From Thermoanaerobaculia bacterium (GTDB lineage Bacteria > Acidobacteriota > Thermoanaerobaculia > Gp7-AA8), in NCBI GenBank assembly GCA_035544735.1, contig DATKCD010000035.1, positions 31,854 through 95,853 of the forward strand: a DNA stretch of 64,000 nucleotides. Direction: 5' to 3'. Positions 3,131 through 35,742 of the stretch are shown here, piece after piece (position 1 is the first letter of the stretch; the number at the start of each line of letters is the position of its first letter). The translations under genes were made by a program, and so were the position numbers. A model generated the notes under the pieces. It worked only from the letters and a program-made list of their open reading frames with translations. It did not search any database and was not told the DNA's origin.

Positions 3131-3535
3131 TTGGCCGATGGAAACGGCAGTACGAGGCCGATGCGCAAGCTGAAGCCGCTCTACGACTGCCTCAAGTGTC
3201 CGGCGTACTGCTGCAGCTACGAGCGGATCGACGTGACCCGGCGCGACCTGTCGCGGCTGGCGCGTCACTTCGGCATCAGCGACGATGACGCCGAGCGGCG
3301 GTTCACCAAGCAGGTCGAGGGCCATCGCGCGCTGCGCCACCAGAAGGACCAGATCTTCGGCTCGATCTGCACGTTCTTCGACAGGGAGACGCGGCGCTGC
3401 ACCGTCTACGAAGCCCGTCCGAACGTCTGCCGCTCGTATCCCGACGGACGCTCCTGCGGGTACTACGACTTCCTCACCTGGGAGCGGGAGCATCAGGACG
3501 ATCCCGACTTCATTCCCTACGAGCTCGGTAAGTAA
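3131..3535 (+). CDS. YkgJ-family cysteine-cluster protein (UPF0153, putative Fe-S/zinc-binding)
   Basis: The Cys pattern CLKCPAYCC ... C..Y ... CRSYPDGRSCGYY is typical of the YkgJ family. Confidence 0.7.
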   Translation: MADGNGSTRPMRKLKPLYDCLKCPAYCCSYERIDVTRRDLSRLARHFGISDDDAERRFTKQVEGHRALRHQKDQIFGSICTFFDRETRRCTVYEARPNVCRSYPDGRSCGYYDFLTWEREHQDDPDFIPYELGK

Positions 3536-3586
3536 CGAGGGCCCTGCGTCTCCTCCGGGTGCTATATTGGGCTCAGGAGGTGACAC

Positions 3587-3790
3587 ATGGGCAAGCACTG
3601 GCACCTCTCGCCCGAGCAGTGGAAGGTCGCGCAGGCGGTCATCCGGGGCGAGCCGGTCTCGCAGACGTGCGTGCGGCTCGGCATCAGCGAGCCGCGCTAC
3701 AAGAAGGATCTCCACGCCGTCGCGGAGAAGGTCGGGGCTCGATCGCGGACCGAGCTGATCGAGACTCTCCGGCGTCCCTCAGCGGGCTGA
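3587..3790 (+). CDS. Small helix-turn-helix DNA-binding protein (LuxR/GerE-like or sigma-70 region-4-like)
   Basis: A 67-aa ORF has a good RBS (GGAGGT, 5 nt before the ATG). The sequence VSQTCVRLGISEPRYKKDLHAVAEKVG looks like an HTH. Confidence 0.45.
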   Translation: MGKHWHLSPEQWKVAQAVIRGEPVSQTCVRLGISEPRYKKDLHAVAEKVGARSRTELIETLRRPSAG

Positions 3791-3879
3791 GCGTCTGAGC
3801 CCCCGCGTTCGATCCCCCATTCCCGGCGTCATTTTCGAGGGGCCGGGGGAGCTCCGGCAGCATGGCAGGCCTGTTGCTC

Positions 3880-3918
3880 TTCATGAATCGACGGATGGAC
3901 CGTCCGTTCATGAATCGA
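3880..3918. promoter_or_regulatory. Two direct copies of TTCATGAATCGA (each containing the perfect palindrome TTCATGAA) 27 bp apart, immediately upstream of the M48 peptidase RBS; candidate operator
   Basis: Copies lie at 3880-3891 and 3907-3918. The RBS CAGGAGG (3921-3927) and the GTG start (3933) follow. This region is lower-GC than its surroundings. Confidence 0.25.
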
Positions 3919-3932
3919 ATCAGGAGGCCTAC

Positions 3933-4724
3933 GTGAGAACACTCGCAACCCGATTCGCGCCGATCGCGGCGCTCCTGCTCCTCGCCGGATGTGCGTCCGG
4001 CGGAGGCTTCAACCTGGTCTCGCTCGAGGAGGAATGGCAGCTCGGCCAGCAGCTCCACGCCGACATCGCCCGGCAGATGCCGCTCCTGAGCGACGCGACC
4101 GCAAACGCCTACATCAACCGGCTGGGCCAGCAGATCGTCTCGGAGACCGAGATGGCGCAGCTTCCCTGGCACTTTCACATCATCGACAGCCCGGAGATCA
4201 ATGCGATGAACATCCCGGGCGGACACGTCTACGTGACGACCGGGCTCATCGGAGCCGCCGACGACGTTTCCGAGCTCGCCGGCGTCGTCGCGCATGAAGT
4301 CGCGCACGGCGTCGAGCGTCACGCCACCGAGAACATGACGAAGGCCTATGGGCTCAACGTCCTCGCCTCGCTGCTTCTCGGTCAGGATCCGGCGATGTAC
4401 CAGCAGATTCTCGCTCAGATCGTCGGCGGCGGCGCGATGGCGAGCTTCGGGCGCGACGCCGAGCGCGAAGCCGACACCCTCGGCACGCGCTACATGTACC
4501 AGGCGGGCTACGATCCGAGAGGAATGGTGACCATGTTCGAGGAGCTGCTCCGCCGGCGCCAGCGGGAGCCGGGGGCGGTCGATCGTTTCTTCTCGACTCA
4601 CCCGCTGACGGAGTCGCGCATCGCCCAGGTTCGGAGCGAGATCGCCACCCTGCCGCAGCGAGCCAACCTGATCAGCAATACCCGGGATTACAACTCGTTC
4701 CGTTCCCGCTTCGGGCGGGGCTGA
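3933..4724 (+). CDS. M48-family zinc metallopeptidase lipoprotein (BepA/YcaL/LoiP-like)
   Basis: The HEXXH motif is HEVAHGVERH. A lipoprotein signal LLLAGCASG is present. The match to BepA/YcaL-type periplasmic M48 proteases is judged by eye. A GTG start with a CAGGAGG RBS is proposed. Confidence 0.8.
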   Translation: MRTLATRFAPIAALLLLAGCASGGGFNLVSLEEEWQLGQQLHADIARQMPLLSDATANAYINRLGQQIVSETEMAQLPWHFHIIDSPEINAMNIPGGHVYVTTGLIGAADDVSELAGVVAHEVAHGVERHATENMTKAYGLNVLASLLLGQDPAMYQQILAQIVGGGAMASFGRDAEREADTLGTRYMYQAGYDPRGMVTMFEELLRRRQREPGAVDRFFSTHPLTESRIAQVRSEIATLPQRANLISNTRDYNSFRSRFGRG

Positions 4725-6319: not shown

Positions 6320-7001
6320 CCTCAATTTTCACCCCGACGGCACCCTTTTCATCCTCTCCGGACCCTCCGGCGCGGGGAAGACGACCCTCATCACCCGCGC
6401 CCAAACCGATCTCACGCGCCTCGGGATCCAGCTCCATTTCTCGGTCTCTCACACGACACGTCAGAAAAGGAAAACCGAGGAGGAAGGGCGCGACTACTAC
6501 TTCGTCGAGCTCCCCGCCTTCGAGCAAATGATTCGAAACGGGGAATTTATCGAATGGGCGCACGTTCATGGCCAGATGTACGGGACCTCGAAGCAGGAGG
6601 TCCTGACGCGGCTCGAGCAGGGGGAGGACGTGATCCTCGACATCGACGTCCAGGGGGCGCGCCAGATCTCGGAGAATTCCGAGCTGCGGCCCCACTCGCT
6701 GAGTCTGTTCCTCTTTCCTCCGTCGTTCGAGGAGCTGGAACGGAGGCTGATCGAGCGGGGGCAGAACACGCCCGAAGAGATCTCGGTGCGGCTGGAGAAG
6801 GCGCTGCACGAGGTCGAATCGGGGATGCCGTTCTACGATTACGTGCTCATCAACGACGATCTCGAGATCGCGGTCGAAAGTCTCAAAGCGGCGGTCATGG
6901 CACGCAAGCTCCGGTCGAAATCGGCCATGGAGGCGCTGCACCAGATGGCGCGCAGGTTCAAGGAGGAACGGAGTGGATCGTTTACCCGAGGGAGTGGATA
7001 G
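6309..7001 (+). CDS. gmk: Guanylate kinase
   Basis: The P-loop GPSGAGKTT is present, together with the motifs SVSHTTRQKR..E..G.DY.F. Confidence 0.9.
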   Translation: MSSSLNFHPDGTLFILSGPSGAGKTTLITRAQTDLTRLGIQLHFSVSHTTRQKRKTEEEGRDYYFVELPAFEQMIRNGEFIEWAHVHGQMYGTSKQEVLTRLEQGEDVILDIDVQGARQISENSELRPHSLSLFLFPPSFEELERRLIERGQNTPEEISVRLEKALHEVESGMPFYDYVLINDDLEIAVESLKAAVMARKLRSKSAMEALHQMARRFKEERSGSFTRGSG

Positions 7002-7194
7002 CAAGTTCCGGTACGTGCTGCTGGTCTCGAAGAGGGCCGAGCACCTGATCCAGGGATCGCCGGCCAACGTGAAATCGAAGCACTTCAAGCCGACGCGTGT
7101 CGCGATGGAAGAGATCGAGCGGAAGGCCGTGGAATGGTCGCTGACGCCTCCGGAGCTTCCGTCGGAGGACGACGCGGACGAGATCGAAGAGTGA
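6973..7194 (+). CDS. rpoZ: DNA-directed RNA polymerase subunit omega
   Basis: A 73-aa ORF with SKFRYVLLVSKRAEHL and an acidic C-terminus. It overlaps the gmk end by 29 nt. Confidence 0.8.
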   Translation: MDRLPEGVDSKFRYVLLVSKRAEHLIQGSPANVKSKHFKPTRVAMEEIERKAVEWSLTPPELPSEDDADEIEE

Positions 7195-8399
7195 ACATCG
7201 TCCTCGGGATCTCGGGCGGCATCGCCGCCTACAAGGCGCCGGACCTGGTCCGGCGTCTCCGGGATGCCGGGGCGAGCGTTCGGGTCCTGATGACGCCGAA
7301 CGCGACGCGGTTCGTCTCCCCCCTTTCCCTCGCCGCGGTCTCCGAGAACGGCGTGATCCACGACCAGTGGGGAGACTCGGCGCACGGGGGAGTCGATCAC
7401 ATCGAGATCGCCCGCTGGGCCGAGCTGCTTCTCGTGGCCCCCGCCACGGCGAACGTCCTCGCGAAGATGGCGACAGGCATCGCCGACGATGCGCTGAGCA
7501 CCTACGCGGTGGCGCACCGCACCGACGTCATGGTCGCACCCGCCATGAACACTTGGATGTGGATGCACCCGACCGTCCGCGAGAATCTCGAGCGCCTCCG
7601 CGGACGGGGAGTCATCGTCCTCGATCCCGACTCGGGGCTGCTCGCCTGCGGCGACGAAGGGCTCGGCCGGATGCCCGACGTCCCGGCGATCGTCGAGCAG
7701 GTCCTCGCCGTGTTCGCCTCCCAGGACCTCGCCGGAAAGAGAGTCCTCGTCACCGCCGGCCCGACGCGCGAGCCACTCGATCCGGTCCGATACCTCTCGA
7801 ACCGCTCTTCGGGAAAGATGGGATATGCGGTCGCGGCCGCCGCACGGCGGAGAGGGGCGGAGGTCACTCTGATCTCGGGGCCCGTCTCGATCCCCGTCCC
7901 CCCCGGCGTCCGCCTGGTCCGCGTCAACACCGCCGCCGAGATGTACGAGCGCGTCCTCGAGGCGCTTCCCGGACACGACCTCGTCGTCAAGGCTGCCGCG
8001 GTCGCCGACTTCACCCCCGCAGACCCCGCCCGGCAGAAGATCCGGAAGACCCCCGGCTCGGACGAGCTGGTCCTGACGCTCAGCCGCACGCCCGACATCC
8101 TCGCCGAGATCGGGCGGCGCGATCCCCGCCCGCTCCTGGTCGCGTTCGCGGCGGAGACCGAGAACCTCGAGGAGCATGCGCGACGCAAGCTCGAGGCGAA
8201 GAACGTCGATCTGATCGTCGCGAACGACGTCGCCGACCGCTCGATCGGCTTCGACTCCGACAAGAACGCCGTCACGATCCTCGGACGCGACGGCTCCTCG
8301 GTCACGGTCGATCGCGCCGACAAGACGACCGTCGCGAACCGCATCCTCGACCGAGCCGTCGCCCTTCTTCCTCGGCGCGCCGCGGTTCCCAGGGTATAG
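7191..8399 (+). CDS. coaBC: Bifunctional phosphopantothenoylcysteine decarboxylase/phosphopantothenate-cysteine ligase
   Basis: The flavoprotein N-domain NIVLGISGGIAAYKAPDLVRRL is present, as are the CoaB C-domain motifs (KTPGSD...). A GTG start overlaps the rpoZ stop (GTGA). Longer upstream ORF starts lie in rpoZ. Confidence 0.9.
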   Translation: MNIVLGISGGIAAYKAPDLVRRLRDAGASVRVLMTPNATRFVSPLSLAAVSENGVIHDQWGDSAHGGVDHIEIARWAELLLVAPATANVLAKMATGIADDALSTYAVAHRTDVMVAPAMNTWMWMHPTVRENLERLRGRGVIVLDPDSGLLACGDEGLGRMPDVPAIVEQVLAVFASQDLAGKRVLVTAGPTREPLDPVRYLSNRSSGKMGYAVAAAARRRGAEVTLISGPVSIPVPPGVRLVRVNTAAEMYERVLEALPGHDLVVKAAAVADFTPADPARQKIRKTPGSDELVLTLSRTPDILAEIGRRDPRPLLVAFAAETENLEEHARRKLEAKNVDLIVANDVADRSIGFDSDKNAVTILGRDGSSVTVDRADKTTVANRILDRAVALLPRRAAVPRV

Positions 8400-8416: not shown

Positions 8417-8868
8417 GGTGTGGTGCGGGCGTCCCGCGCGCCCCCGGGCGGGAGGCCGGTTCCGCAACGCCCCGGGAATCACAGAGTGACCGTGAACGCC
8501 GGAACTGATCCCGGCCCGCGCATGTGGCCGGGGAATTCATCCCCGGCGGGAGGGCGGTTCCGCGCCGAGACACTCCGCCTGTCAGGCAGTGGGGAGGAGC
8601 GAATGCAGAATGCAGAATGCAGAAGGAAGAATCCAGAAAGGGCGCGTGGCACGATCACGGTACGGCGAAGTCGCCATCGACCATTTCTGGATTCTTCCTT
8701 CTGCATTCTGCATTCTGCATTCCTTCTATTCCTTCTCAACGACGTCTGATCTTTCGACAGCCAGGAAGATCTTCATCGTTGTCCTGGACACTCCGACCTC
8801 CCGGCGCCCCTGGCCGGCGATTTCACGTGGCCGGGGATTTCCTGTGGCCGGGACGCCCGCACCACACC
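8417..8868. mobile_element. MITE-like 452-bp intergenic element with perfect 20-bp terminal inverted repeats (GGTGTGGTGCGGGCGTCCCG / CGGGACGCCCGCACCACACC) and nested internal inverted repeats
   Basis: The terminal inverted repeats at 8417-8436 and 8849-8868 are exact reverse complements. Internal direct copies of TGTGGCCGGGGA(A/T)TT occur near both ends. The element has lower GC than the flanking genes and lies between the coaBC stop (8399) and the udg start (8891). No transposase is encoded. Confidence 0.4.
8601..8722. repeat. Perfect 39-bp inverted repeat (arms 8601-8639 and 8684-8722) with a 44-nt loop; each arm is (GAATGCA)x3 + GAAGGAAGAATCCAGAAA
   Basis: Right arm TTTCTGGATTCTTCCTTCTGCATTCTGCATTCTGCATTC is the exact reverse complement of the left arm. 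The loop contains a smaller hairpin, GGCGAAGTCGCC. ORFs 8479..8739(-), 8524..8877(+) and 8589..9269(+) that read through this region are rejected. Confidence 0.9.
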
Positions 8869-8890: not shown

Positions 8891-9634
8891 ATGTTGCGCC
8901 CCGACCTTCGGACCGAGCTGGAACTGCTTCGCGATCTCGGCCATACGCATCTCGATCTCAGGCGCGCGCGCGCGGCCCGGGGCGACGAGGCCGACTCCGG
9001 ATCGCTCGACGAGCTCCCGGCGGGTGAGGCCTCGACGCGCCTGCTCGAGGGCGTACCGCGCCCGGAGGACGTCGCTCCGATACCACTCCTCAGCCAGCTC
9101 GAAGCCGCCGCAAAGCGCTGCATCCTCTGCCGTCTGTCCGGAACGCGCACCCAGGTCGTGTTCGGAACCGGCAACCCCGCGGCCGATCTCCTGTTCGTCG
9201 GAGAGGCGCCGGGTCGCGACGAGGACCTCGAGGGAGAGCCGTTCGTCGGCCGCGCCGGAAAGCTGCTGACCGACATCATCGGAGCGATGAAGCTCTCCCG
9301 CGACGAGGTCTACATCGCCAACGTGATCAAGTGCCGGCCGCCCGGCAATCGCAATCCCGAGCCCGACGAGATGGCCGCCTGCCGTCCCTGGCTCGACCGG
9401 CAGATCGAGCTCATCGCCCCGAAAGTCATAGTCACCCTCGGCAAGTTCGCCGCCCAGCGTCTGCTCGGCCGCTCGGTCGCCATCACGGCCGTGCGCGGGG
9501 AGTGGCAGATCTGGCGCGGCATCCGCGTCATGCCGACCTACCACCCCGCCTATCTGCTTCGCACCCCCTCGGCCAAAAAGGACGTCTGGAAGGACATGCA
9601 GCAGGTGATGGTCGAGCTCGGGATCGCGCTCTGA
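8891..9634 (+). CDS. Uracil-DNA glycosylase, family 4 (thermostable/UdgA-like)
   Basis: The Cys motif [19 protein letters not shown] and the motif GRAG.LL are present. The N-terminal 75 aa upstream of the CxxC cluster have a composition typical of the genome. Confidence 0.8.
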
Positions 9635-13752: not shown

Positions 13753-15492
13753 ATGCCGATCCACCAGAGCTGGGATCTCGCGCCCGACCCGGGAGGGGAG
13801 GCGGACCTTCCCGTATCCGAGGCGCTGATCCCGCTGTTCGCGCGGCGCGGGGTGCGCGACGCGGCGCAACTGGAGGGGTTCAGCCGGCCGACGCTCGCCT
13901 CGCTGCACGACGCAGCGGCGATCGGCGGGATGGATTCCGCCTGCGAGCGGATCTTCCGCGCGATCCGCGACCGCGAAGCGATCGTGATCTACGGAGACTA
14001 CGACGTCGACGGCGTGACCTCGATCGTGATGCTGCGCGCGGTACTGAGGGCCCTCGGGGCGGACGTCGGGTTCGTGGTCCCCCACCGGCAGTTCGACGGC
14101 TACGGGCTCCGGACCGAAGTGCTCGACCGCGTTCTGCGCGAGCGAGCCATTCGGCTGGTGATCACGGTCGACTGCGGCATTACCTCGGTCGAGCCGGTCG
14201 CGCGGGCGATCGAGCAGGGCATCGACGTGATCGTGACCGACCACCACCTTCCTCCCGATCTGCTGCCGGAGGCGGCAGCCGTTCTGAATCCGAGGAAGGA
14301 GGGATGCGACTATCCGTTCAAGGAGCTGGCGGGAGTGGGGGTGGTGTTCAAGCTCTCGTGCGAGCTGCTGCGGCGCGCGGGGCACGGGATGTCGATCGAG
14401 TCGCTGGCGAAGATCGCGGCGATCGGGACGGTGGCGGACGTGGCGCCGCTGGTGGGAGAGAACCGTGCGCTGGTACGCATCGGGCTCGACGGGCTGGCCG
14501 ATCCGCGCAACCCGGGTCTGCGGGCGCTGATGCGCTCGCTCGGACTGCTCGGGCGACCGCTTCGGGCGGCCGACGTCGGGTTTCGCATCGGGCCGCGCAT
14601 CAACGCGGCAGGACGCGTCGCCTCGGCCGACACGGCGATCGATCTGTTCGACGCTCCGAACGAGGGAGCCGCATTGCCTCTGGTCGAGGAGCTCCACAGG
14701 CTGAACCGGGAGCGCCGCGCGCTCGAAGCCGCGCTGCTGCGCGAGGCGGAAGAGCAGATCGCAGCGATGGGAGGGCTTCCTCCGATCCTCGTCCTCGCCG
14801 GCGAGGGGTGGCACAAGGGGGTCGTCGGACTCTGCGCCGGAAGGCTCGCGCAGAAGTACAGCCGGCCCACGCTCGTGATCGCCCGCGGCGAGACGGAGTG
14901 CGTCGGCTCGGGACGGAGCATTCCCTCGATCGATCTGCACGCGGAGCTCGCGCGCGCCGGGGATCTGTTCACGCGGTTCGGCGGGCACAGCCACGCCTGC
15001 GGGTTCTCGCTCGAGGCCTCGCGCCTCGACGCGCTCCGCGAACGGCTGATCGACGGGCTCGCCGGCATCGACGCCTCGGCGTTCATCAAACGCCTCCCGA
15101 TCGAAGCGGAGATCGAGCTCGATTCGATCGACGCCCGGCTCCTCGCCGACCACGCGCTGCTCGAGCCGTTCGGACAGGACAACCCGCAGCCCGCGCTGCT
15201 CGCCCGCGGCGTCCGCGTCGAGCAGACGAGGGAGTTTTCACCCGGCTGCCACCGTTTGCTGGTCCGACAGGCTTCCCGGCGGATGACGGCGGTCTGCTGG
15301 CCCTCGACCGCGGCGCTCGAGCCGCTCGTCGGCGGGGGGCGGACGATCGATCTGGCCTTTCGTCTGGAACCGGACCGCTACGAGGGATTCCGCCTCGAGG
15401 TGGTCGACGCTGCCGCGGCGGGCGAAGCCCCCCTGGACGGCCCGGCAACCGCGACCGACGTCCCCGATCCTCGACCATGGTTCGACGCGTAA
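13753..15492 (+). CDS. recJ: Single-stranded-DNA-specific exonuclease RecJ
   Basis: The DHH motifs IYGDYDVDGVTS, VITVDCG and DHH, and the DHHA1 region, are present. The internal start MPIHQSW lies after the accA stop. The upstream part of ORF 13663.. overlaps accA. Confidence 0.85.
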   Translation: MPIHQSWDLAPDPGGEADLPVSEALIPLFARRGVRDAAQLEGFSRPTLASLHDAAAIGGMDSACERIFRAIRDREAIVIYGDYDVDGVTSIVMLRAVLRALGADVGFVVPHRQFDGYGLRTEVLDRVLRERAIRLVITVDCGITSVEPVARAIEQGIDVIVTDHHLPPDLLPEAAAVLNPRKEGCDYPFKELAGVGVVFKLSCELLRRAGHGMSIESLAKIAAIGTVADVAPLVGENRALVRIGLDGLADPRNPGLRALMRSLGLLGRPLRAADVGFRIGPRINAAGRVASADTAIDLFDAPNEGAALPLVEELHRLNRERRALEAALLREAEEQIAAMGGLPPILVLAGEGWHKGVVGLCAGRLAQKYSRPTLVIARGETECVGSGRSIPSIDLHAELARAGDLFTRFGGHSHACGFSLEASRLDALRERLIDGLAGIDASAFIKRLPIEAEIELDSIDARLLADHALLEPFGQDNPQPALLARGVRVEQTREFSPGCHRLLVRQASRRMTAVCWPSTAALEPLVGGGRTIDLAFRLEPDRYEGFRLEVVDAAAAGEAPLDGPATATDVPDPRPWFDA

Positions 15493-27265: not shown

Positions 27266-28572
27266 CCGCTTCGACCAGCGAGAAAGCGTTCTTCATCGAG
27301 ACCTGGGGCTGCCAGATGAACGACCTCGATTCGCAGCGCCTCGCGGGACAGCTCCGGCTCCGCGGCTGGCGACGCGTCGAGGATGCCTCCCGGGCGAGCC
27401 TGATTCTGCTCAATACCTGCAGCATCCGGGACAAGTCCGAGAACAAGGTCTTCAGCCGGCTCGGCGAGCTCCGCGGGGTCGGGCGGTCCGGCGTGAGAGT
27501 CGGCGTCGCCGGCTGCGTCGCGCAGCAGGAAGGAGAAGCCATCCTCGCCCGCGCCCCCTGGGTCGACTTCGTCATGGGTCCGGGTAACGTCGGCGCCCTC
27601 GATCAGCTCCTCGACGGGACGCGGAAGGTCGCGGTCGACTTTCCCGCCGACAGGCGATACGACTATCTCTCGATCGACCGCCCCTCCCGCGTGCGCGCTC
27701 AGGTCACGATCATCGAAGGGTGCAACAAGAACTGTACCTTCTGCATCGTTCCGACCACGCGCGGCCGCGAGGTCTCGCGCCCGATGCGGGAGATCGTCGG
27801 CGAGATCCGCTGGGAGCTGCGGCAGGGGAGGGCCGAGGTCGAGCTGCTGGGACAGACCGTCAATGCCTACCGCTGCCCCGAGAGCGGAACCGACTTCGCC
27901 GGCCTGCTCGAGACGATCGCCCGCCTTCCCGGGCTGCTCCGCCTCCGGTTCGTCACCTCCCACCCCGCCGAGGTGACCGACCGCCTCATCGAGGTGATGC
28001 GGGACTACCCGGTGATCTGCCGTTACCTCCATCTTCCCGTCCAGTCGGGCTCCTCGCGCGTGCTGCGCCGGATGAAGCGCCTCTACACCCGGGAGCAGTA
28101 TCTCGACGTGATCGAGCGCATCCGGACGGCCATCCCCGGGATGAACTTCTCGACCGACATCATCGTCGGATTCCCGGGAGAGACCGAGGAGGATTTCGAG
28201 CAGACGCTGAGCCTGGTCGAGAAGGTCGGATACGGATCACTCTTCGGCTTCCTCTACTCGCCGCGGCCGGGAACGCCGGCGCCGCGGCTCGGGCCCCCCG
28301 TCGAGCACGGCGTCGCCGCGGCGCGACTCGGGCGGCTGTTCGCTCTGCAGGAGCGATTCGAGCGGAGGACGCTCCGGAGCTGGGTCGGCCGGATCGTCCC
28401 GGTGCTGTACGAGGGGTCGAGCGCGAAGAGTCCGGAGGTCCTGGCCGGCAAAACAGAGCACAACTGGACCGTGAACTTCACGAGCGCCCGTCCCGCTTCG
28501 ATCGGGGAGCTCGTTCCCGTGCGGATCGATCACGCGCTTCATCACTCGTTGCGAGGGGAGGCCGTCGCGTGA
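27262..28572 (+). CDS. miaB: tRNA-2-methylthio-N6-dimethylallyladenosine synthase
   Basis: The MTTase N-domain WGCQMN, the radical-SAM motif CNKNCTFCIVP and a TRAM domain are present. Confidence 0.9.
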   Translation: MTASTSEKAFFIETWGCQMNDLDSQRLAGQLRLRGWRRVEDASRASLILLNTCSIRDKSENKVFSRLGELRGVGRSGVRVGVAGCVAQQEGEAILARAPWVDFVMGPGNVGALDQLLDGTRKVAVDFPADRRYDYLSIDRPSRVRAQVTIIEGCNKNCTFCIVPTTRGREVSRPMREIVGEIRWELRQGRAEVELLGQTVNAYRCPESGTDFAGLLETIARLPGLLRLRFVTSHPAEVTDRLIEVMRDYPVICRYLHLPVQSGSSRVLRRMKRLYTREQYLDVIERIRTAIPGMNFSTDIIVGFPGETEEDFEQTLSLVEKVGYGSLFGFLYSPRPGTPAPRLGPPVEHGVAAARLGRLFALQERFERRTLRSWVGRIVPVLYEGSSAKSPEVLAGKTEHNWTVNFTSARPASIGELVPVRIDHALHHSLRGEAVA

Positions 28573-29054
28573 GCACTCTGATTCCGATGACCATCAAGGG
28601 GCTGATGCTCGACCCGGTCTCCAATTCTCCCATCGTCGTCCTCAAGGACGGCGAGGAGAAGGTCTTCCTGCCGATCTGGGTCGGCGTGTTCGAGGCCAAT
28701 GCCATCGCCCTCCAGCTCGAGAACATCGACACCCCGCGGCCGATGACCCACGACCTGCTCCGGAACGTGATCTCCACGGTCGAGGGAACCGTGGAGCGGA
28801 TCGTCATCAGCGAGCTCCGCGAGTCGACCTTCTACGCCCTGATCCTCATGACCGTCGGAGGGAAGAGCCTCGAGATCGATGCCCGTCCCAGCGATGCGAT
28901 CGCCCTCGCACTCCGCACCGCCTCGCCGATCTTCGTCGAGCAGGCGGTCCTCGAACAGGCTCAGACCATCGTCCCCGAAGAGGACACCGACGACCGGCTT
29001 CGGAAGTGGTTCGAGAGCGTCAGCCCCGAGGACCTCGGAAAATACAAGATGTAG
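28569..29054 (+). CDS. Bifunctional nuclease domain (BFN/DUF151) protein
   Basis: The motifs VVLKDGEEKVFLPIWVG..EA.AIA and ARPSDAIALALR are present. A GTG start overlaps the miaB stop (GTGA); the alternative start is the ATG at 28587. Confidence 0.7.
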   Translation: MSTLIPMTIKGLMLDPVSNSPIVVLKDGEEKVFLPIWVGVFEANAIALQLENIDTPRPMTHDLLRNVISTVEGTVERIVISELRESTFYALILMTVGGKSLEIDARPSDAIALALRTASPIFVEQAVLEQAQTIVPEEDTDDRLRKWFESVSPEDLGKYKM

Positions 29055-29056
29055 GG

Positions 29057-29285
29057 GCGTCTTGGGCGTCTAGGGCGTCCTGGGCGTCTGGAGCGTCTGG
29101 AGCGTCTGGAGCGTCTGGAGCGTCTGGAGCGTCTGGAGCGTCTTGGGCGTCTGGGCTGTGCCAGCCGCGGTTTCCGCCGGATGAGAGCAAACGTCGAACC
29201 GCCGAAGAAGACTTCAGCGAAAGATGACGCCCCAGGCACACCGGACGCTCCAGACCCTCCAGACGCTCAAGACGCTCAAGACGCT
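29057..29285. repeat. Inverted tandem 9-bp repeat array, locus A: 11 units of GCGTCTGGA-like (29057-29155), an 85-bp spacer, then 5 units of the complement CCAGACGCT-like (29241-29285)
   Basis: Counted directly. The forward-unit variants TTGG/TAGG/CTGG/TGGA/TGGG have matching complementary variants in the reverse array. The locus fills the whole interval between the BFN stop (29054) and the parA start (29305). ORFs translating it (RRSRRS or ASGASG periodic peptides) are rejected. Confidence 0.9.
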
Positions 29286-29304
29286 GTAGAATCGGACTCA
29301 CGGA

Positions 29305-30060
29305 ATGATCATCACCGTCGCGAACCAGAAGGGCGGAGTGGGAAAGACCACGACCGCGATCAATCTCGCCGCAGCCGTCGCCAACAAGGGGTTCAAGACC
29401 CTCCTGATCGATCTCGATCCCCAGTCGAACTCCACGATGAGCTACGTGGACGTCCGCTCGATCGAGAGGTCGATGTTCGACGTGCTGGTCTCCGAGGAGC
29501 TCGGATTGAGGGAGGTCATCATTCCGACGTCGGTGGAGAACCTCCATCTGGCTCCCTCCCGGATCGCCCTCGCGAAGCTCGAGTCCAAGCTGATCGGCGA
29601 GATGGACGGTCATTACCGCCTCAAGGATCGCCTCGGCGACGTGGGGAGCGAGTACGACTACGTCTTCATCGACACCCCACCGACGCTCGGCATGATCACC
29701 GTCAACGCCATGGTCGCGTCGACCCACGTCCTGGTGCCGATCCAGTCGTCCTATTTCGCTCTCGAAGGGACGGACGACCTGCTCGAGACCATCGACAAGA
29801 TCAAGTCCAGGCCGAACCCGAATCTGCAGCTTCTCGGCGTCGTGATCACCATGCACGACAAGCGGACGACTCTGGCCAAGGACATTCACGACCAGATCCG
29901 GGAGGTGTTCGGCGACCGCCTCTTCCAGACGATGATCACCAAGTCGATCCGACTCGAAGAGAGCCCGGCGTACAAGGAGTCGATCTTCACGTTCGCGCCA
30001 CGATCGAGCGGCGCGATGGAGTACTACTCGCTCTCCGAGGAGATACTGTCCCGTGTGTAG
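29305..30060 (+). CDS. parA: ParA/Soj-family chromosome partitioning ATPase
   Basis: The deviant Walker A motif NQKGGVGKTTTAINLAAA is present, with full-length ParA similarity. Confidence 0.9.
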   Translation: MIITVANQKGGVGKTTTAINLAAAVANKGFKTLLIDLDPQSNSTMSYVDVRSIERSMFDVLVSEELGLREVIIPTSVENLHLAPSRIALAKLESKLIGEMDGHYRLKDRLGDVGSEYDYVFIDTPPTLGMITVNAMVASTHVLVPIQSSYFALEGTDDLLETIDKIKSRPNPNLQLLGVVITMHDKRTTLAKDIHDQIREVFGDRLFQTMITKSIRLEESPAYKESIFTFAPRSSGAMEYYSLSEEILSRV

Positions 30061-30120
30061 CGCGGGTGGATGGACCGACCCGCGGGTCTCTCCGCGGTCC
30101 GAGGCTGGAGCTCGAAGACG

Positions 30121-30945
30121 ATGAAACGTGGACTTCCCGAACGCGCACGCATGCGACACGACGCCCACTTCGTCGACGAGCTCGCCAAACGATCCTCCGC
30201 CCACGTCGGATCGATGATCCCGCTCTCGCTCATCGAGCCCAATCCCGAGCAGCCGCGAACCAACATCGGGAACCTCGACGAGCTCACCGCATCGATCCGC
30301 GAGAAGGGGGTGCTCGAGCCGATCCTGGTCCGCCAGCTCGGCCCCGGCCGCTACCAGATCATCTCCGGAGAACGCCGCTTCCGCGCCGCCACCGCCGCCG
30401 GCCTCGAAGAGATCCCCGCCATCGAGTTCGACGCCGACGACCGCGAAGCCCTCGAGATCGCCCTGATCGAGAACATCCAGCGGAAGGACCTCACCCCCTT
30501 CGAAGAAGCCGAAGGGTTCCGGTTCCTCCAGGAGAAATTCGGCTACACCCATGAGAAGATCTCCCAGGTCCTCGGCAAATCCCGCACGACCATCACCGAA
30601 GTCCTCCAGCTCAATGAGATCCCCGACCGGATTCGCGTCCTCTGCCGCGAGGGGGGGATCGCCAGCAAGTCCGTCCTGGTCCAGATCGCCCGGGCGGGGA
30701 GTGAGGAGGCGATGGAGGAGCTGGTCGACCGCTTCTCCCGCGGCGAGATCACCCGCCAGGATGTCCGGAGAGCGACCTCCAGGAGGGTCGAGCCGAAGAA
30801 GGCCGGCCGCCCCCGGAACTACCGCTTCGATCTGAAGGACCGGAGCCTGCCGTTCACCCTCAGCCTCCGCTTCCGGAAGTCGGAAGTCGACAAGAAGGAA
30901 GTCATCGCCGCCCTCCGCGCGGTCATCGAGCGACTCGAGAAGTAG
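30121..30945 (+). CDS. parB: ParB/Spo0J-family partitioning protein
   Basis: The ParB-box GERRFRAA and the HTH KSRTTITEVLQL are present. The start may lie earlier, because ORF 30070..30945 begins upstream. Confidence 0.85.
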   Translation: MKRGLPERARMRHDAHFVDELAKRSSAHVGSMIPLSLIEPNPEQPRTNIGNLDELTASIREKGVLEPILVRQLGPGRYQIISGERRFRAATAAGLEEIPAIEFDADDREALEIALIENIQRKDLTPFEEAEGFRFLQEKFGYTHEKISQVLGKSRTTITEVLQLNEIPDRIRVLCREGGIASKSVLVQIARAGSEEAMEELVDRFSRGEITRQDVRRATSRRVEPKKAGRPRNYRFDLKDRSLPFTLSLRFRKSEVDKKEVIAALRAVIERLEK

Positions 30946-31174
30946 GCGTCTCGAGCGTCTAGGGCGTCTGGGGCGTCTGGTGCGTCTGGAGCGTCTGGAG
31001 CGTCTAGGGCGTCTGGAGCGTCTGGAGCGTCTTGGGCGTCTGGAGCGTCTTGGGCGTCTTGGGCGTCCTGAGCGTCGTGGCGGTATGGGGGGGGTGTCCC
31101 CTCGGAGAGTGCCGTGACGGCCCGGACGCCCAAGACGCTCCAGACGCCCAAGACGCCCAAGACGCCCAAGACGC
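30946..31174. repeat. Inverted tandem 9-bp repeat array, locus B: 15 forward units (30946-31080), a 40-bp spacer containing the mini-palindrome GGGGGGGGTGTCCCCTC, then 6 reverse-complement units (31121-31174)
   Basis: Counted directly. The array starts on the first base after the parB stop and ends about 125 bp before lptF-lptG. Confidence 0.9.
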
Positions 31175-31301
31175 GACTTAACATAATCTCTCTTATGAGA
31201 CGCTGCGGAAATCGGGCGGCCGGCAACAAATCTCCCTCGCCGCGCGTTCTTCAACCCATTGCGGCGCGGCCGCTTGCGGCTGATCCGCCCGCTCGGCACC
31301 G

Positions 31302-33632
31302 ATGCGCATCCTGACCCGTTACGTCCTCCGCGAGCTTCTCCCGCCGACCCTGCTCGGGTTCGGCTTCTACACCTTCATCATCCTGATGAAGAACCTGTTC
31401 GACTTCGCGGAGATGATCATCAAACGGTCGCTGCCGTTCTCGATCGTCCTCGAGCTGCTCGCCCTGGCGCTCCCGCACATCGTCGTGCTGACGATCCCGA
31501 TGTCGCTGCTGGTGGGGATCCTCATCGCCATCGGCCGGCTCTCGGCCGACTCCGAGATCATCGCCATGCAGTCGGCGGGTCAGTCGCCGGCGGCGATCTA
31601 CCGGCCGGTCTTCTACTTCTCCGTCGCGGTGTTCCTCGTCAATCTCGTCCTGATGATCTGGGTTCTTCCGTGGGGCAACGCGGCGCTGCAGAAGCGCCGG
31701 GTCGATCTGCTGACCTCGGCCGTGGAGCGCGAGATCAAGCCTCGGGTTTTCTTCGACGAGTACGAGGACCGGGTGATCTACATCGACGACGTCGAGACGG
31801 CCACGGGACTGTGGAAAGGGATCTTCATCGCCGACACGAGCGATCCCGATCAGCAGCGGATCATCGTGGCGGATGCGGGACGTCTCTCGGTGACGAGCGG
31901 GACGCGGCAGGTCTGGCTGGACCTCGAGGGACCCGAGACGCACGTGCTGTCACCCGACAAACCGGAGCGATACGATCTGAATCGGAACGAGGCGCAGCAG
32001 ATCCTGCTGGACGATCCTTCGCTCGGCGAGCTCGAGACGCGGTCGCTCGCGAAGTCGCTCAAGGAGATGAGCCTGACCGAGCTGCTGGAGCGGCTCCGCC
32101 GCGCCCAGGCCGAGGGTGACGCGCTCGACGAGCGGTTCATCCGGGTGGAGATCCACACCCGGTTCGCGATCCCGTTCGCCTGCATCGCATTCGGCGTGCT
32201 CGGGCTGCCCCTCGGGATCACGAACCGCCGCGGAGGCAGGAGCTCGGGCTTCTCGCTGAGCATCGCGATCATCCTTCTCTACTACATCCTGCTGAACAAC
32301 GGCGAGGATCTGGCGCGCTCGGGCCGGCTCCCTCCAGGGATCTCGATGTGGCTGGCGAACGCGGTTCTGCTGGGGGCCGGACTCTGGCTGCTCGGGAAGA
32401 CGGGGACGGACCGGAGGGCGGGCGGGCTGCGGCGGCTGATCGCTCCCCTGCGCCGGCTGGCGCGATGGAAACGCCCCGCGGACCGGAAAAAGGAGCTCGC
32501 GCGGGACGAGGGATCTCTGCTGCAGCGTCTGGACATTCCGTTCCCGAACACGATCGACCGCTACGTCCTGATCGAGTTCGCCAAGATTCTGGCGCTCGTC
32601 GTGCTCTCGACGGCGGTGTTGTTCGTGGTGGTCGATTACACGGAGATCGCCGGGCACGTGGGCGAGAACGACATCCCCTTCGACGTGGTGGCCTCGTACT
32701 ACCGATATCTGATGCTGCAGATCCTGAGCTGGGTCCTTCCGATCTCGGTTCTCGTCGGGACGCTCATCACGTTCGGGATCCTGTCGAAGAACAACGAGGT
32801 GACGGCGATCAAGGCCAATGGGATCTCGCTGTACCGGATCGCGCTGCCGGTCGTTGCCGTCGCGGCCACGATCAGCGTGGTGTCGTACTTCCTCCACGAC
32901 TTCGTGCTGCCGTACTCGAACCAGCGTGTGGCGGAGCTGCGCGCGCACATTCGCGGAAGGGAGACGGCGAGCGCGTACTCGCCGGAGCAGCAGCGGCAGT
33001 GGGTGTTCGGGAAGGGACGCTACATGTTCAACTTCCTCGGCTACGATCGCTCCTCGCGGACCCTGTCGGAAATCCAGGTCTTCGAGTTCCATCCGAGCGA
33101 GTTTCGCCTCACGCGGCGAGTCTGGGCGGACGAGGCGCGCTTCGACGGCACCGGCTGGGTGTTCCTGAACGGCTGGATGCGCTCGTTCGGAGACGACGGT
33201 GGCTCGTCCTACACGCCGCTCTCGCGTCCGGTCCGGCTGCACTATCCGGAGCGGCCCTCCTGGTTCGAGGTCGAAGCGAAGGCGCCCGACCAGATGACCT
33301 GGGCCGAGCTGCGCCGCTACATCGCCAATCTCAGACGTCTCGGCTACTCCGCCGACGAGCTGACCGTCAGGCTCTGGGAAAAGACGTCATGGCCCTTCAT
33401 CAGCGTGGTCATGGCGCTGATCGCCCTCCCCTTCTCGTTCAGGATGGGAAAGAAGGGGGCGCTCTACGGCATCGGAATCGCGCTCTTTCTCGCGTTCGTC
33501 TACTGGAGCCTGTTCGGCGTGTTCAGCAAGCTGGGCGAGGTCGGCAACCTTCCCGGCATCCTGGCCGCCTGGAGCGCGAACGTCCTGTTCATGATCGCCG
33601 CGCTCTACATGTTCCTCCACGTCGAGACGTGA
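31302..33632 (+). CDS. lptFG: Fused LptF-LptG LPS export permease (two YjgP/YjgQ-family modules in one 776-aa ORF)
   Basis: The N-terminal half has the LptF layout and the second half the LptG layout. The N-terminal half begins MRILTRYVLRELL and has TM helices, a periplasmic domain and C-terminal TM helices. The second half begins about aa 410 at IDRYVLIEF and repeats the same architecture. There is no in-frame stop between the halves. The linker is basic (RRLIAPLRRLARWKRPADRKKELARDEG). Confidence 0.7.
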   Translation: MRILTRYVLRELLPPTLLGFGFYTFIILMKNLFDFAEMIIKRSLPFSIVLELLALALPHIVVLTIPMSLLVGILIAIGRLSADSEIIAMQSAGQSPAAIYRPVFYFSVAVFLVNLVLMIWVLPWGNAALQKRRVDLLTSAVEREIKPRVFFDEYEDRVIYIDDVETATGLWKGIFIADTSDPDQQRIIVADAGRLSVTSGTRQVWLDLEGPETHVLSPDKPERYDLNRNEAQQILLDDPSLGELETRSLAKSLKEMSLTELLERLRRAQAEGDALDERFIRVEIHTRFAIPFACIAFGVLGLPLGITNRRGGRSSGFSLSIAIILLYYILLNNGEDLARSGRLPPGISMWLANAVLLGAGLWLLGKTGTDRRAGGLRRLIAPLRRLARWKRPADRKKELARDEGSLLQRLDIPFPNTIDRYVLIEFAKILALVVLSTAVLFVVVDYTEIAGHVGENDIPFDVVASYYRYLMLQILSWVLPISVLVGTLITFGILSKNNEVTAIKANGISLYRIALPVVAVAATISVVSYFLHDFVLPYSNQRVAELRAHIRGRETASAYSPEQQRQWVFGKGRYMFNFLGYDRSSRTLSEIQVFEFHPSEFRLTRRVWADEARFDGTGWVFLNGWMRSFGDDGGSSYTPLSRPVRLHYPERPSWFEVEAKAPDQMTWAELRRYIANLRRLGYSADELTVRLWEKTSWPFISVVMALIALPFSFRMGKKGALYGIGIALFLAFVYWSLFGVFSKLGEVGNLPGILAAWSANVLFMIAALYMFLHVET

Positions 33633-33633
33633 G

Positions 33634-33848
33634 GCGTCTGGAGCGTCTGGAGCGTCTGGAGCGTCTGGAGCGTCTTGAGCGTCTGGAGCGTCTGGAGCGT
33701 CCGGAGCGTCTCGGCGGTTCGAAGACCGCGAGAGAATCACTCGAGACGCCCGAGACGCCCGAGACGCCCGAGACGCCCGAGACGCTCAAGACGCCCGAGA
33801 CGCTCCAGACGCCCGAGACGCTCCAGACGCTCCAGACGCTCCAGGCGC
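33634..33848. repeat. Inverted tandem 9-bp repeat array, locus C: 9 forward units (33634-33714), a 26-bp spacer, then 12 reverse units, mostly CCGAGACGC/TCCAGACGC (33741-33848)
   Basis: Counted directly. The locus lies between the convergent lptFG stop (33632) and the pckA stop (33854). Confidence 0.9.
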
Positions 33849-33853
33849 CCCGG

Positions 33854-35413
33854 TCAGATCGCTTCGACGATCCGCCGGTCGAGCCCTTCCCATTTGCGGA
33901 GGTACTCCTTCCGCTCGCGGAGGTAGCGCTCGACCAGCTTCTGGTACTCGTCCATCCGCCCCTGGCGCTCGTAGAGCCGTCGCGGCTGGAGATAGTCGGC
34001 GTCGTCGATTCCCGGCACGCGGCTGGCGACTCGATAGCCGAAGTCGGGGTCCGTTTCCCACTCGATGGTCCCTTCCGCGATGGCCTTGACGATCGCCGAG
34101 GAGTGCTGAATCCGGACCTTCTTGGCGCGGTCGTCGTCGTCGCCGCCGCCGATCCGCCCGGTGTTCATCAGGTAGACCTCCATCGGCGAGCTCTCGAACA
34201 GCTCGAGGAAGCGGTTGCCCTGGAGAGCGTGCAGCAGGGGAAAGAAGGGGTTCGTGCCGGGAACGCGGAGGGACTTGCCGGCCTCGGCCGCGCCGCCGGC
34301 GCTCGTTCCTTTCGTCTCACCGAGCATGAAGAACGCGGCCGCCTGAGCTCCCTCGAGCTTCGCGACGGCCGGAATGATGTTGTCGTTGCGGTTGAGGATC
34401 AGGAGGAAGTCGGCCTTGTCGATCCTGCGTGCGTCGTAGCTCCCGGCCACGTCCTGCATCCGGATGACCGCGCGGCCGTTCTTCGTGTAGGACGTATCGA
34501 AATAGTCGATCTTCCCGTCTTCGTCCAGCGAGACGTTCTCGAGATAAGCATGGCGCGAAGCGCAGGCGCGGTAGATCGTCGGCTCGTCCTTCTCGTTGAG
34601 CCCGAAGGTCTTGGCGAAGCAGCCGTTCTCGGTGGCGACGACCTTCCCTCCCGGCATCAGCGCGGCGAAATCGTCCTGCACGGGCGAGGAGTCGTTCTGC
34701 TTGGTGAAGGTCGTGGTCGTCTTGCCGGTCCCCGAGAGGCCGACAATCAGCCCGACCCGGTGTTTGCCGTTCACCGGGATCACCTTGCATCCGGCGTGGA
34801 GCGCGAGTCCGCCGCGCTCGTAGACGATCTTGTTCCACATCCGGAGGCCGCCTTTTTTCGACTCCCCGAAGTAATCGGAGTTGAACACGCGCGTGATCTC
34901 GTTCTCGAGATCGACGGCGATCAGGCGGTCGTCGGGGTATCCGGGCATCGGCAGGTTCGGCGTGTAGACGACCTGGAGCTTCGGCTCGAAGCTTTCGAGC
35001 TCCTCGGGCGTCGCCGGGTAGTAGAGGTGCTGCTGCATCGCCGCGATGTTCGCGTTCCGCTTCTCCATGACGAGTCGAGCCGGGACCCGGTGCTGCGGGT
35101 CGTTCCCGATGAACCCCTCGACGACGATCATCTCCTGGCCGCGGATGTAGTCGTCCTGGAGCTTCGAGATGCGGTCGTACTCGGCGCGGGTGATGGTCTG
35201 GTCGGAGTGGCGGGAAGGATCGTCCGTCGCAATGAACGTCGAGAGCTTGGAGCGGGAGACCACGCGCGTGGCGACGTTGTAGTTGTCGAACTCGGTCTTC
35301 CGCGCATTGGGCATCTGCGCGGTCAGCTCGCGCAGCTCCCGGGGAGAAGGATTCCATAGGACCGATTTCGGCTGGACCGGAAGCGCTTTCGATTCCCGTG
35401 CGATTTCCGTCAT
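33854..35413 (-). CDS. pckA: Phosphoenolpyruvate carboxykinase (ATP)
   Basis: The ATP-type P-loop GLSGTGKTTT, PEPCK motifs and RIGGG are present. The start MTEIARE is chosen within the longer ORF, whose 5' extension is Arg-rich. Confidence 0.85.
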   Translation of the reverse strand: MTEIARESKALPVQPKSVLWNPSPRELRELTAQMPNARKTEFDNYNVATRVVSRSKLSTFIATDDPSRHSDQTITRAEYDRISKLQDDYIRGQEMIVVEGFIGNDPQHRVPARLVMEKRNANIAAMQQHLYYPATPEELESFEPKLQVVYTPNLPMPGYPDDRLIAVDLENEITRVFNSDYFGESKKGGLRMWNKIVYERGGLALHAGCKVIPVNGKHRVGLIVGLSGTGKTTTTFTKQNDSSPVQDDFAALMPGGKVVATENGCFAKTFGLNEKDEPTIYRACASRHAYLENVSLDEDGKIDYFDTSYTKNGRAVIRMQDVAGSYDARRIDKADFLLILNRNDNIIPAVAKLEGAQAAAFFMLGETKGTSAGGAAEAGKSLRVPGTNPFFPLLHALQGNRFLELFESSPMEVYLMNTGRIGGGDDDDRAKKVRIQHSSAIVKAIAEGTIEWETDPDFGYRVASRVPGIDDADYLQPRRLYERQGRMDEYQKLVERYLRERKEYLRKWEGLDRRIVEAI

Positions 35414-35742
35414 GATCTCCCCTTTGCCGTTGCGGACGCGTGGTTTGCGCCGCGCCCTCCGGTTCCGCTCGCGCAGCAGCCTCGCGCGGAGGGCCATGGC
35501 GGCCCTGCAGACGCCGGGTTTCGCCAGTTTATCGATTTTCGGCTCGCGCCGTCCACCCAGGAGAATGCGAAGAGCGTACCTCCGGGCGGGCGCGGGTGCC
35601 GGGCCTCTCCCGCCGGCGGAAGAGCGGCTTCACGGATGAAATCCCCCGCCCGAGTCCGCCGCTTCGCCGGGCCGCCCTCGAGGATCGGATGCCCTCCGAT
35701 GCCCGGCGCGCCCTCCCCTCCCCTGCTACAATTCACGCCGCC

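Follow-up and report, generated by a model that had tools for sequence, protein, structure and literature searches.

In proteobacterial genomes, repetitive extragenic palindromic (REP) sequences and bacterial interspersed mosaic elements (BIMEs) are distributed between genes, with GTAG- and CGTC-tagged REPs among them (Di Nocera et al. 2013, PMC3733652). The ribosomal RNA (rRNA) genes of Coxiella and Leptospira can carry another kind of element, the intervening sequence (IVS). The Coxiella 23S IVS contains an open reading frame (ORF) for S23p, the 23S rRNA intervening-sequence protein, together with a 28-bp terminal stem that is cut by RNase III and tandem heptamers that vary between strains; the IVS is seen as a selfish element that is tolerated because RNase III removes its stem (PMC4990558). 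Intergenic tandem arrays of 7-nucleotide (nt) units, of unknown function, are abundant in some lineages, as are the cyanobacterial short tandemly repeated repetitive (STRR) sequences and the TAACTGA repeats of Beggiatoaceae. In the Orange Guaymas Maribeggiatoa genome, such repeats form 169 direct sets and a single inverted set, most of them located ahead of start codons (PMC4679880). Here, we analyze a 64,000-nt stretch of contig DATKCD010000035.1 from a Thermoanaerobaculia bacterium (Acidobacteriota), hereafter the window, in which three intergenic loci (A, B, and C) within 4.8 kb each place a unique spacer between a forward (GCGTCTGGA)n array and a reverse array. They lie around the parAB and fused lptFG genes. 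We consider it likely that loci A to C are gene-less copies of a dispersed, IVS-like foldback family of Thermoanaerobaculia and the wider Acidobacteriota, and that, if they act at all, they do so as REP-like RNA stems.

Like REPs and BIMEs, the elements of this family are extragenic, dispersed, and multi-copy. They lie mostly downstream of ORFs, between unidirectional or convergent genes and also between the cistrons of operons; their inverted pairs fold into larger hairpins and form mosaics with other motifs. The building block differs. A REP unit is a 20-40-bp palindrome with a 4-nt tag, whereas here a non-palindromic 9-mer or 7-mer is repeated 3 to 30 times and only whole arrays are complementary. 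CGTC or GTAG occurs inside many of these units, but not as a stem tag, and no RAYT or TIRYT gene was found here in what was a weak test. With rRNA IVSs, the family shares a long stem of terminal inverted repeats, a PF05635 ORF in the loop (among relatives of the window copies), and tandem 7-nt repeats whose copy number varies between strains (PMC4990558). In contrast to IVSs, the window copies have no ORF and sit in intergenic regions of mRNA rather than in rRNA helices. All copies lie between protein-coding genes, and none lies in the terminal loops of 23S rRNA helices. Their arms are arrays of up to ~270 bp rather than a 28-bp unique stem, and stem length leads us to expect that RNase III would cut them.

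Miniature inverted-repeat transposable elements (MITEs) are a further parallel, being short, gene-less, and multi-copy, with inverted termini, and outnumbering gene-carrying relatives about tenfold. Unlike MITEs, the window copies show no target-site duplication, no transposase, and no conserved internal sequence, and their termini are arrays of variable length. A MITE shares its termini with an autonomous element; here, 9-mer arms do flank S23p genes at three of the loci gathered for comparison (L057, L087, and L107), and S23p is no known transposase. The Foldback (FB) elements of Drosophila have long inverted arms made of short tandem repeats in variable number, around a central domain that is variable or absent. 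We draw this parallel by analogy only and imply no homology; FB elements belong to eukaryotes and are of far greater size. The STRR and TAACTGA arrays resemble those described here in unit length and abundance, but here the arrays are paired, inverted, and placed after stop codons, although the cyanobacterium Symploca (L065) does show the inverted form. The family is kin to known extragenic palindromic repeats and IVS-like elements, and the wider lead is that S23p genes are systematically embedded in inverted tandem arrays. The literature that we searched describes neither this architecture nor the association of S23p with arrays, an absence that is no proof of novelty. Paired inverted 7- and 9-nt arrays directly past stop codons constitute a distinct bacterial extragenic architecture in a poorly studied phylum.

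The three inverted 9-bp arrays, first noticed in the letters alone (the original prediction), are real. Tandem Repeats Finder (TRF) called arrays at every locus: 10.9 forward copies of GCGTCTGGA (29057-29154) and 4.7 reverse copies (29244-29285, with two degenerate units from 29226) at locus A; 14.6 forward (30946-31076) and 5.6 reverse copies (31125-31174) around a 48-bp spacer at locus B; and 8.7 forward (33634-33711) and 12.1 reverse copies (33742-33850) around a 30-bp spacer at locus C. The unit counts given earlier were correct to within one unit and a few bases. A two-unit probe (≤3 mismatches) had 41 matches in the window, every one within loci A to C, against 0.26 in shuffled sequences. 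The statement that the 64 kb holds no other copy is accurate for the 9-bp unit; positions 8601-8722 hold an inverted tandem array of another unit, 7 nt long. Unit lists show arrays that are homogeneous at the center and degenerate at the edges. Mirrored unit variants in the two arms, as had been proposed, occur position by position in locus B, while the arms of loci A and C have different variant mixes. The arms are 78-89% complementary over 59-82 nt, and the expected 45-100-bp hairpin at each locus was recovered with energies far below those of shuffled sequences. RNA folds of loci A, B, and C reached -154.6, -167.3, and -177.6 kcal/mol (z = -9.4, -11.9, and -15.3) and DNA folds reached -79, -87, and -103 kcal/mol (z = -8 to -13.5). 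Rfam gave no match at the gathering threshold, only a chance-level hairpin (E = 0.47), and there is no rRNA here.

The 9-mer arrays recur at many unrelated sites in related genomes. We scanned a genome collection (one genome per species, at least three units). The metagenome-assembled genome (MAG) JBOGJQ01 had 9-mer arrays on at least 22 contigs, at no fewer than 24 unrelated sites, and MAG CAWCBB01 had at least seven loci with 9-mer arrays, on long contigs. Wherever both arms lay in one contig, the forward array came before the reverse array, and both outer ends of the elements read GCGTCT inwards. The dominant unit variant differs by genome: GGA prevails in the window, TGG does so in JBOGJQ, and in CAWCBB it is TGA or AGG. 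To the question of whether the loci are confined to the par region, the answer is that they are dispersed, as shown in these two related MAGs; the source genome was seen within its 64 kb. Among the explanations first put forward, a REP/BIME-like palindrome family was essentially right, as judged by dispersal, position past stop codons, and mosaics with other palindromic modules.

Matches outside the Acidobacteriota (Streptomyces, Granulosicoccus, and others) were mostly short single-orientation arrays without an inverted partner. We inspected two of them (L004 and L061) and rejected both as family members, as they are coding PET-type repeats. A link to phages was also rejected: the nine matches on viral contigs were all single-orientation arrays and probably coding. 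In Symploca sp. SIO2E9, a different dispersed repeat, GGAATTTTAATTCTCC(GCGTCTGGA)4...TTCCCCCAC.CTTTTTTTCGCTCACCC, carries the identical 9-mer four times in direct orientation, without an inverted partner (L012 4330-4420, L023 2750-2830, and L034 3890-3960).

Some 9-mer elements carry a gene. The loop of the element in L057 holds a 131-aa ORF that matches PF05635 (23S_rRNA_IVP; E = 7e-28), TIGR02436 ('four helix bundle protein'), and the structure PDB 2GSC. A 78%-identical homologue lies within another 9-mer element in another genome (L087), and the flanks of the two elements are not homologous. When homologues were chosen by protein similarity alone (L106, L107, and L108), 3/3 lay between inverted 9-mer arrays, each beside different genes. 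The arrays are GCGTCTTGG/GCGTCTAGG, of the window's unit family, in L107; GGGTCTAGG/GAGTCTAGG in L106; and GGGTCTGTC/GAGTCTATC, with ~30 units, in L108, which belongs to the 4.49-Mb record CP065003. All five acidobacterial S23p homologues are therefore found in 9-mer array loops, three with the window's unit family and two with related GNGTCTNNN units. Distant homologues (37-46% identity; from metagenomes, GC content 40-65%) had tandem 7-8-nt arrays in their flanks in six of seven cases, although for two of these six (L101 and L105) a contig end left one flank visible. These arrays often start at the upstream stop codon and have units such as GGTGCTGC, GTGTTGAA, GTACCGA, and ATGTGTTN. A hidden Markov model (HMM) search of the window and the other loci returned only the S23p ORFs already known, and gene-less copies thus outnumber gene-carrying ones by at least tenfold. 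PADLOC gave no meaningful match for S23p.

These associations tie the S23p/IVS family to a recognizable repeat structure and make both the origin of rRNA IVSs and the function of S23p testable. To our knowledge, the function of S23p (the 'four helix bundle protein', Avd-like) has remained unknown for three decades. We tentatively raise the possibility, which we regard as doubtful, that S23p is the signature gene of widespread foldback elements whose arms are tandem 7-9-nt arrays with S23p-clade-specific units, and that it recognizes the arrays as DNA or RNA and promotes the maintenance or spread of the element. Gene-less copies would then be non-autonomous derivatives that colonized mRNA 3' ends, and rRNA IVSs would be a special case that landed in rRNA helices. 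PF05635 is homologous to Avd, an accessory protein of diversity-generating retroelements (PMC10053308). By comparison with Avd, which works with a reverse transcriptase, S23p might possibly act via RNA released by RNase III.

Pairing of arrays is restricted to particular periods. The acidobacterial loci contain ~30 inverted tandem arrays with ~12 different units, where pairing was defined as TRF arrays with reverse-complementary consensus units. Across 340 kb of acidobacterial DNA, an inverted partner was present for 22 of the 44 period-7 arrays and for 12/38 arrays of the 9-mer family, and for none of the 43 arrays with periods of 5, 6, 8, or 10-14. In 418 kb from other phyla, 2/26 heptamer arrays were paired (one pair, Symploca L065), as were 0/55 9-mer arrays. 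With the 9-mer family left out, because it had been used to choose the loci, the density is ~1 element per 14-16 kb; the window has four in 64 kb. The fourth, (GAATGCA)n...(TGCATTC)n, lies in a gap of 758 bp that separates coaBC (7191-8399) from a UDG-family gene (9158-9634). Its arm family, (GAAYGCA)n GAACGTAGAAGGAAG, also occurs in MAG JBOGJQ (L014, L028, and L033), sometimes nested. The same intergenic region has, on either side of the 7-mer array, a 17-bp tandem repeat (TGGCCGGGGATTTCACG, 2.5 copies, 8811-8852) and a related hairpin (GTGGCCGGGGAATTCATCCCCGGC, 8525-8550). As a separate observation, GTAG or CGTC is present on one strand in 6-7 of ~11 acidobacterial units (GTAGCTG, GTAGCAG, GTAGGAA, GCGTCTGGA, CAGTCGT, and ACGTCCTAT), against a chance expectation of ~1.3. 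The two REP superfamilies have these tetranucleotides as their tags, and the units beside distant S23p genes follow no such pattern.

Nearly every element has at least one flanking gene that ends ~0-6 nt from its outer edge, in convergent or co-directional arrangement. In L017, L081, L083, L087, and L089, a TAG stop shares its G with the first GCGTC. In the window, locus A starts 2 nt past the stop of the bifunctional-nuclease (BFN)-domain gene and ends 19 nt ahead of the parA ATG, and locus B begins, as had been stated, with the first base past the parB stop. Locus C fills the gap between convergent stops, 1 nt from that of lptFG and 3 nt from that of the gene for phosphoenolpyruvate carboxykinase (PEPCK); Pfam and gene calls agree with the earlier description of this context. 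Integron attC sites, which are also palindromes directly past cassette stops, were considered and rejected, because housekeeping genes in conserved synteny lie on either side and an attC core is missing.

In two species, a 9-mer element fills the whole gap between gyrB and gyrA and ends 1-2 nt from the gyrA start (L071, element 46-128, gyrA ATG at 131; L001, element 6611-6834, gyrA start at 6609 on the minus strand). The site is orthologous, with flanking DNA ~80-86% identical, and the arms have 16/6 units in one species and 4/4 in the other. Since elements fill both gyrB-gyrA and parA-parB gaps, they are not obligatory terminators. The suggestion of a bidirectional terminator or insulator holds only in part: the position of the elements agrees with it, but there is no U-tract and termination cannot be obligatory. 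The gyrB-gyrA element leaves no space for a Shine-Dalgarno sequence or a promoter ahead of gyrA. The folded stem would place the gyrB stop beside the gyrA start, and translational coupling across the stem is possible.

The arrays change quickly. Over 14.3 kb, L089 and L090, which are 99.9% identical, are separated by 12 substitutions, and each of the three indels between them is a change of a single array unit: +7 in both the forward and the reverse arm of one element, and +9 within a 9-mer array. By slippage, whole units are added to and dropped from the arms more rapidly than substitutions build up. The indels, genome-specific unit variants, homogeneous centers, and degenerate edges are what slipped-strand expansion and contraction under concerted evolution leaves behind, and the paired +7 change suggests that one arm may be corrected against the other. 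The arrays are hypervariable markers for strain typing.

Short loops are unique, the window's three included, and the loop of locus A has no similarity to any other loop or to the S23p loops. Long loops share a ~135-bp palindromic, MITE-like core (core 1; GTCATCCTGAG...CTCAGGATGAC, or more fully GTCATCCTGAGCGAGG...GAAGGATCTCCTCAGC...GCTGAGGAGATCC...CTCAGGATGAC). Core 1 occurs in either orientation, within 9-mer and 7-mer elements, and also alone (L094 2889-3142); its further sites are in L017, L018, L052, L083, L089/L090 (8350-8556), L093 (8341-8519), L013, and L060. A second core (GGGTAGCCGGTGGTGAC...; …GGAGGGTAGCCGGTGGTGAC…GTCACCACCGGCTACC…) lies beside 9-mer arrays in L026 (601-814), L081 (~590-830), and L089 (~14200-14313). 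A hybrid occupies 1260-1680 of L060: its left arm is built of CAGTCGT heptamers and its right arm of 23 9-mer units, with core 1 between them, and the two arms are not complementary. From its composition, this hybrid is probably a recombinant that arose via the shared core 1, which would imply that the repeats mediate rearrangements. In such modularity, the elements resemble the BIME mosaics of Escherichia coli. A single slot can also differ between relatives: L083 (3834-4257) has a 9-mer array and core 1 where the window (3535-3933) has a 67-aa ORF (3587-3790) after a promoter-like TGCTATATT.

The setting of the loci makes it tempting, but wrong, to see in them a ParB centromere of a new type, in which the arrays would be centromere-like iterons or autoregulatory operators for this ParB or ParA. 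The arrays bracket parAB, cover most of the upstream region of parA, and cluster as three copies around the par operon; the window lacks a canonical parS even at ≤3 mismatches. Like the iteron centromeres of R1 (parC) and F (sopC) and chromosomal parS sites, they place short repeats beside par genes. We nevertheless regard this explanation, which covers two of the four options that the original prediction listed without choosing among them, as very improbable. Arrays of the identical family occur at dozens of unrelated loci, such as gyrB-gyrA and beside Band_7, response-regulator, and glycosyltransferase genes, and 2.7 kb separate parB from locus C, which sits in the gap of lptFG and PEPCK. 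With periods of 9 and 7 nt there is no helical phasing, the geometry is that of inverted hairpins, no 16-bp parS palindrome is present, and this ParB is of the chromosomal TIGR00180 type. For the proposed comparison of orthologous loci, we examined seven syntenic loci with the order PtsI, hypothetical protein, MiaB-like, BFN, ParA, ParB, LptFG, and convergent PEPCK, and found other units or plain hairpins in the same slots. The units include TAGCTGG, CAGTCGT, GTAGGAA, GTAGCAG, CGTTCTC, and GTAGGCA. Thus, L089 has a (TAGCTGG)n/(CCAGCTA)n hairpin past BFN and a (CAGTCGT)n...(ACGACTG)n element past lptFG, L093 has (GTAGGAA)n...(TTCCTAC)n past lptFG, L096 has a GTAGGCA-type hairpin past BFN, the parA-parB gaps of L093 and L096 contain heptamer hairpins, and the slots of L091 and L097 have plain hairpins. 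ParB is 81-84% identical across six genomes, and its helix-turn-helix (HTH) segment is invariant. Both the centromere and the operator explanation fail because the arrays do not co-vary with ParB across these loci, and the association with parAB and lptFG is incidental.

An assembly artefact, with repeats collapsed or chimeric in a short-read MAG, is extremely improbable. Many contigs of the short-read assembly JBOGJQ do stop inside arrays (L018, L033, L043, and L059); copy numbers in short-read MAGs may be collapsed and exact values unreliable, and the arrays explain why these MAGs are fragmented at array sites. Yet the same architecture is found inside long contigs of independent assemblies (0.4-0.6 Mb in CAWCBB and the 4.49-Mb record CP065003), and the window arrays are internal to their 102-kb contig, with intact conserved genes on either side. 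It is unlikely, though not to the same degree, that the elements are immobile terminator hairpins past stop codons that grew in place by slipped-strand duplication and quasi-palindrome correction, with no link to S23p and with units shared through convergence or gene conversion. Growth in place would account for the dominance of unit-length indels, the joint change of both arms in one element, the homogeneous centers and degenerate edges, the many different units, and the presence of some hairpin in every orthologous slot, and we saw neither target-site duplication nor transposase. It does not account for the same 9-mer, polarity, and outer GCGTCT at no fewer than 24 non-homologous sites (JBOGJQ), in at least three genomes, for array-S23p-array composites in five different genomic contexts, or for the heptamer families GTAGCTG and GAAYGCA, which are also multi-copy and common to several genera. 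We consider it quite unlikely, too, that the elements work as DNA rather than as RNA stems, as multi-site platforms to which S23p pentamers or a nucleoid- or gyrase-type protein would bind, or as chromosome-structuring cruciforms. As single-stranded DNA, too, they fold far more stably than shuffles, units recurring regularly at 7 or 9 nt resemble iterated binding sites, the arrays found with S23p genes have different units in different S23p clades, and one element sits at gyrB-gyrA; BIMEs of E. coli bind gyrase and IHF. Most copies, however, lie far from any S23p gene, the unequal arms (11 versus 5 and 15 versus 6 units) argue against a precise protein scaffold, and tight abutment to stop codons together with arm complementarity is more simply explained by a transcribed hairpin.

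We therefore return to the dispersed foldback family. An element of this family consists of two arms of inverted tandem 9-nt arrays (GNGTCTNNN; here GCGTCTGGA) whose outer ends read 5'-GCGTCT inwards, around a loop that may hold a 120-140-aa four-helix-bundle S23p gene, one of the two palindromic cores, or a short unique sequence. As the whole is a palindrome, RNA transcribed from one strand or the other should contain an identical 45-100-bp stem, 5'-(GCGUCUGGA)n...(UCCAGACGC)m-3'. This structure could be a barrier to 3' exonucleases and a substrate of RNase III, like the stems of REPs, BIMEs, or IVSs. It might mark or process mRNA 3' ends and intercistronic junctions, would be non-obligatory as a terminator, and should cost the host little. 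In origin, the family is probably selfish or near-neutral, and it would spread by copying.

Several observations weigh against this interpretation. No target-site duplication or target motif was evident at 20 or more array junctions, and a regular-expression motif scan of the sequences gathered, a weak test that covered no whole genome, found no RAYT or Y1 transposase. Neither remnants of an S23p gene nor the shared palindromic cores could be recognized in the window loops, so descent from gene-carrying elements rests only on arm sequence and polarity. S23p, for which no catalytic activity is known, may ride along in such loops as a passenger and not drive them. The three window copies all fall within 4.8 kb, and comparable local groupings of elements are seen on other contigs. 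The 64-kb window yielded no canonical parS (≤3 mismatches), and the first 93 loci yielded no exact one. At the RNA level, where any function of the loci as stems is purely our inference, no T-run or U-tract followed any arm at the stems examined. The comparison of sense with antisense folding, which exploits G-U/A-C asymmetry, came out at 9/16 with a mean of -3.7 kcal/mol and was dominated by unequal arm lengths.

Table 1. Features of the window around loci A to C, and the 7-nt inverted tandem array.
Feature	Position	Strand	Description	Basis
Inverted tandem array, 7-nt unit	8601-8722		Fourth array; (GAATGCA)3 GAAGGAAGAATCCAG ... mirror; two 36-nt arms identical	
BFN-domain gene	28569-29054	+	Bifunctional nuclease domain	Pfam PF02577, gene calls
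Locus A forward arm	29057-29155		~11 units of GCGTCTGGA or variants	TRF, sequence, unit list
Locus A loop	29156-29225		Unique spacer, small internal hairpins	
Locus A reverse arm	29226-29285		~5-7 units of TCCAGACGC or variants	
TAGAAT	29287-29292	+	-10-like box, 12 nt ahead of parA ATG	Sequence comparison
parA	29305-30060	+		Pfam
parB	30121-30945	+	ORF open from 30070	
Locus B forward arm	30946-31080		~15 units	TRF, unit list
Locus B loop	31081-31124		Contains G8/C4 mini-hairpin	
Locus B reverse arm	31125-31174		~6 units; variant order mirrors inner forward units	
lptF-lptG	31302-33632	+	Fused gene	Pfam
Locus C forward arm	33634-33714		~9 units	
Locus C loop	33715-33741			
Locus C reverse arm	33742-33850		~12 units	
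PEPCK gene	33854-35497	-	ATP-dependent; convergent with lptFG	

The region around the loci has further conserved features (Table 1). The parA promoter had been placed inside locus A; a conserved -10-like TAGAAT sits just beyond the reverse array instead. This box is kept ahead of parA in all orthologous loci and is a putative promoter element. TAGAAT stands ~7-15 nt ahead of the parA ATG in L089-L097, and also ahead of lptFG in L093, L094, L096, and L097. A box so near the ATG suggests leaderless or very short-leader mRNAs in the lineage, as far as sequence comparison can tell. Between parB and lptFG, directly after the reverse arm of locus B, lies a 34-nt motif, TTAACATAATCTNTCTTATGRGACKCTGCGGAAA (31178-31211), which is conserved in all syntenic genomes (L089, L091, L093, L094, L096, and L097) and has no Rfam entry; promoter, operator, and lptFG leader element are all conceivable roles for it. 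The fusion of LptF with LptG (~770-830 aa) is the norm in the lineage: the protein has 1204 homologues at E ≤ 1e-50, and, among the matches listed, 120/120 have the fused size.

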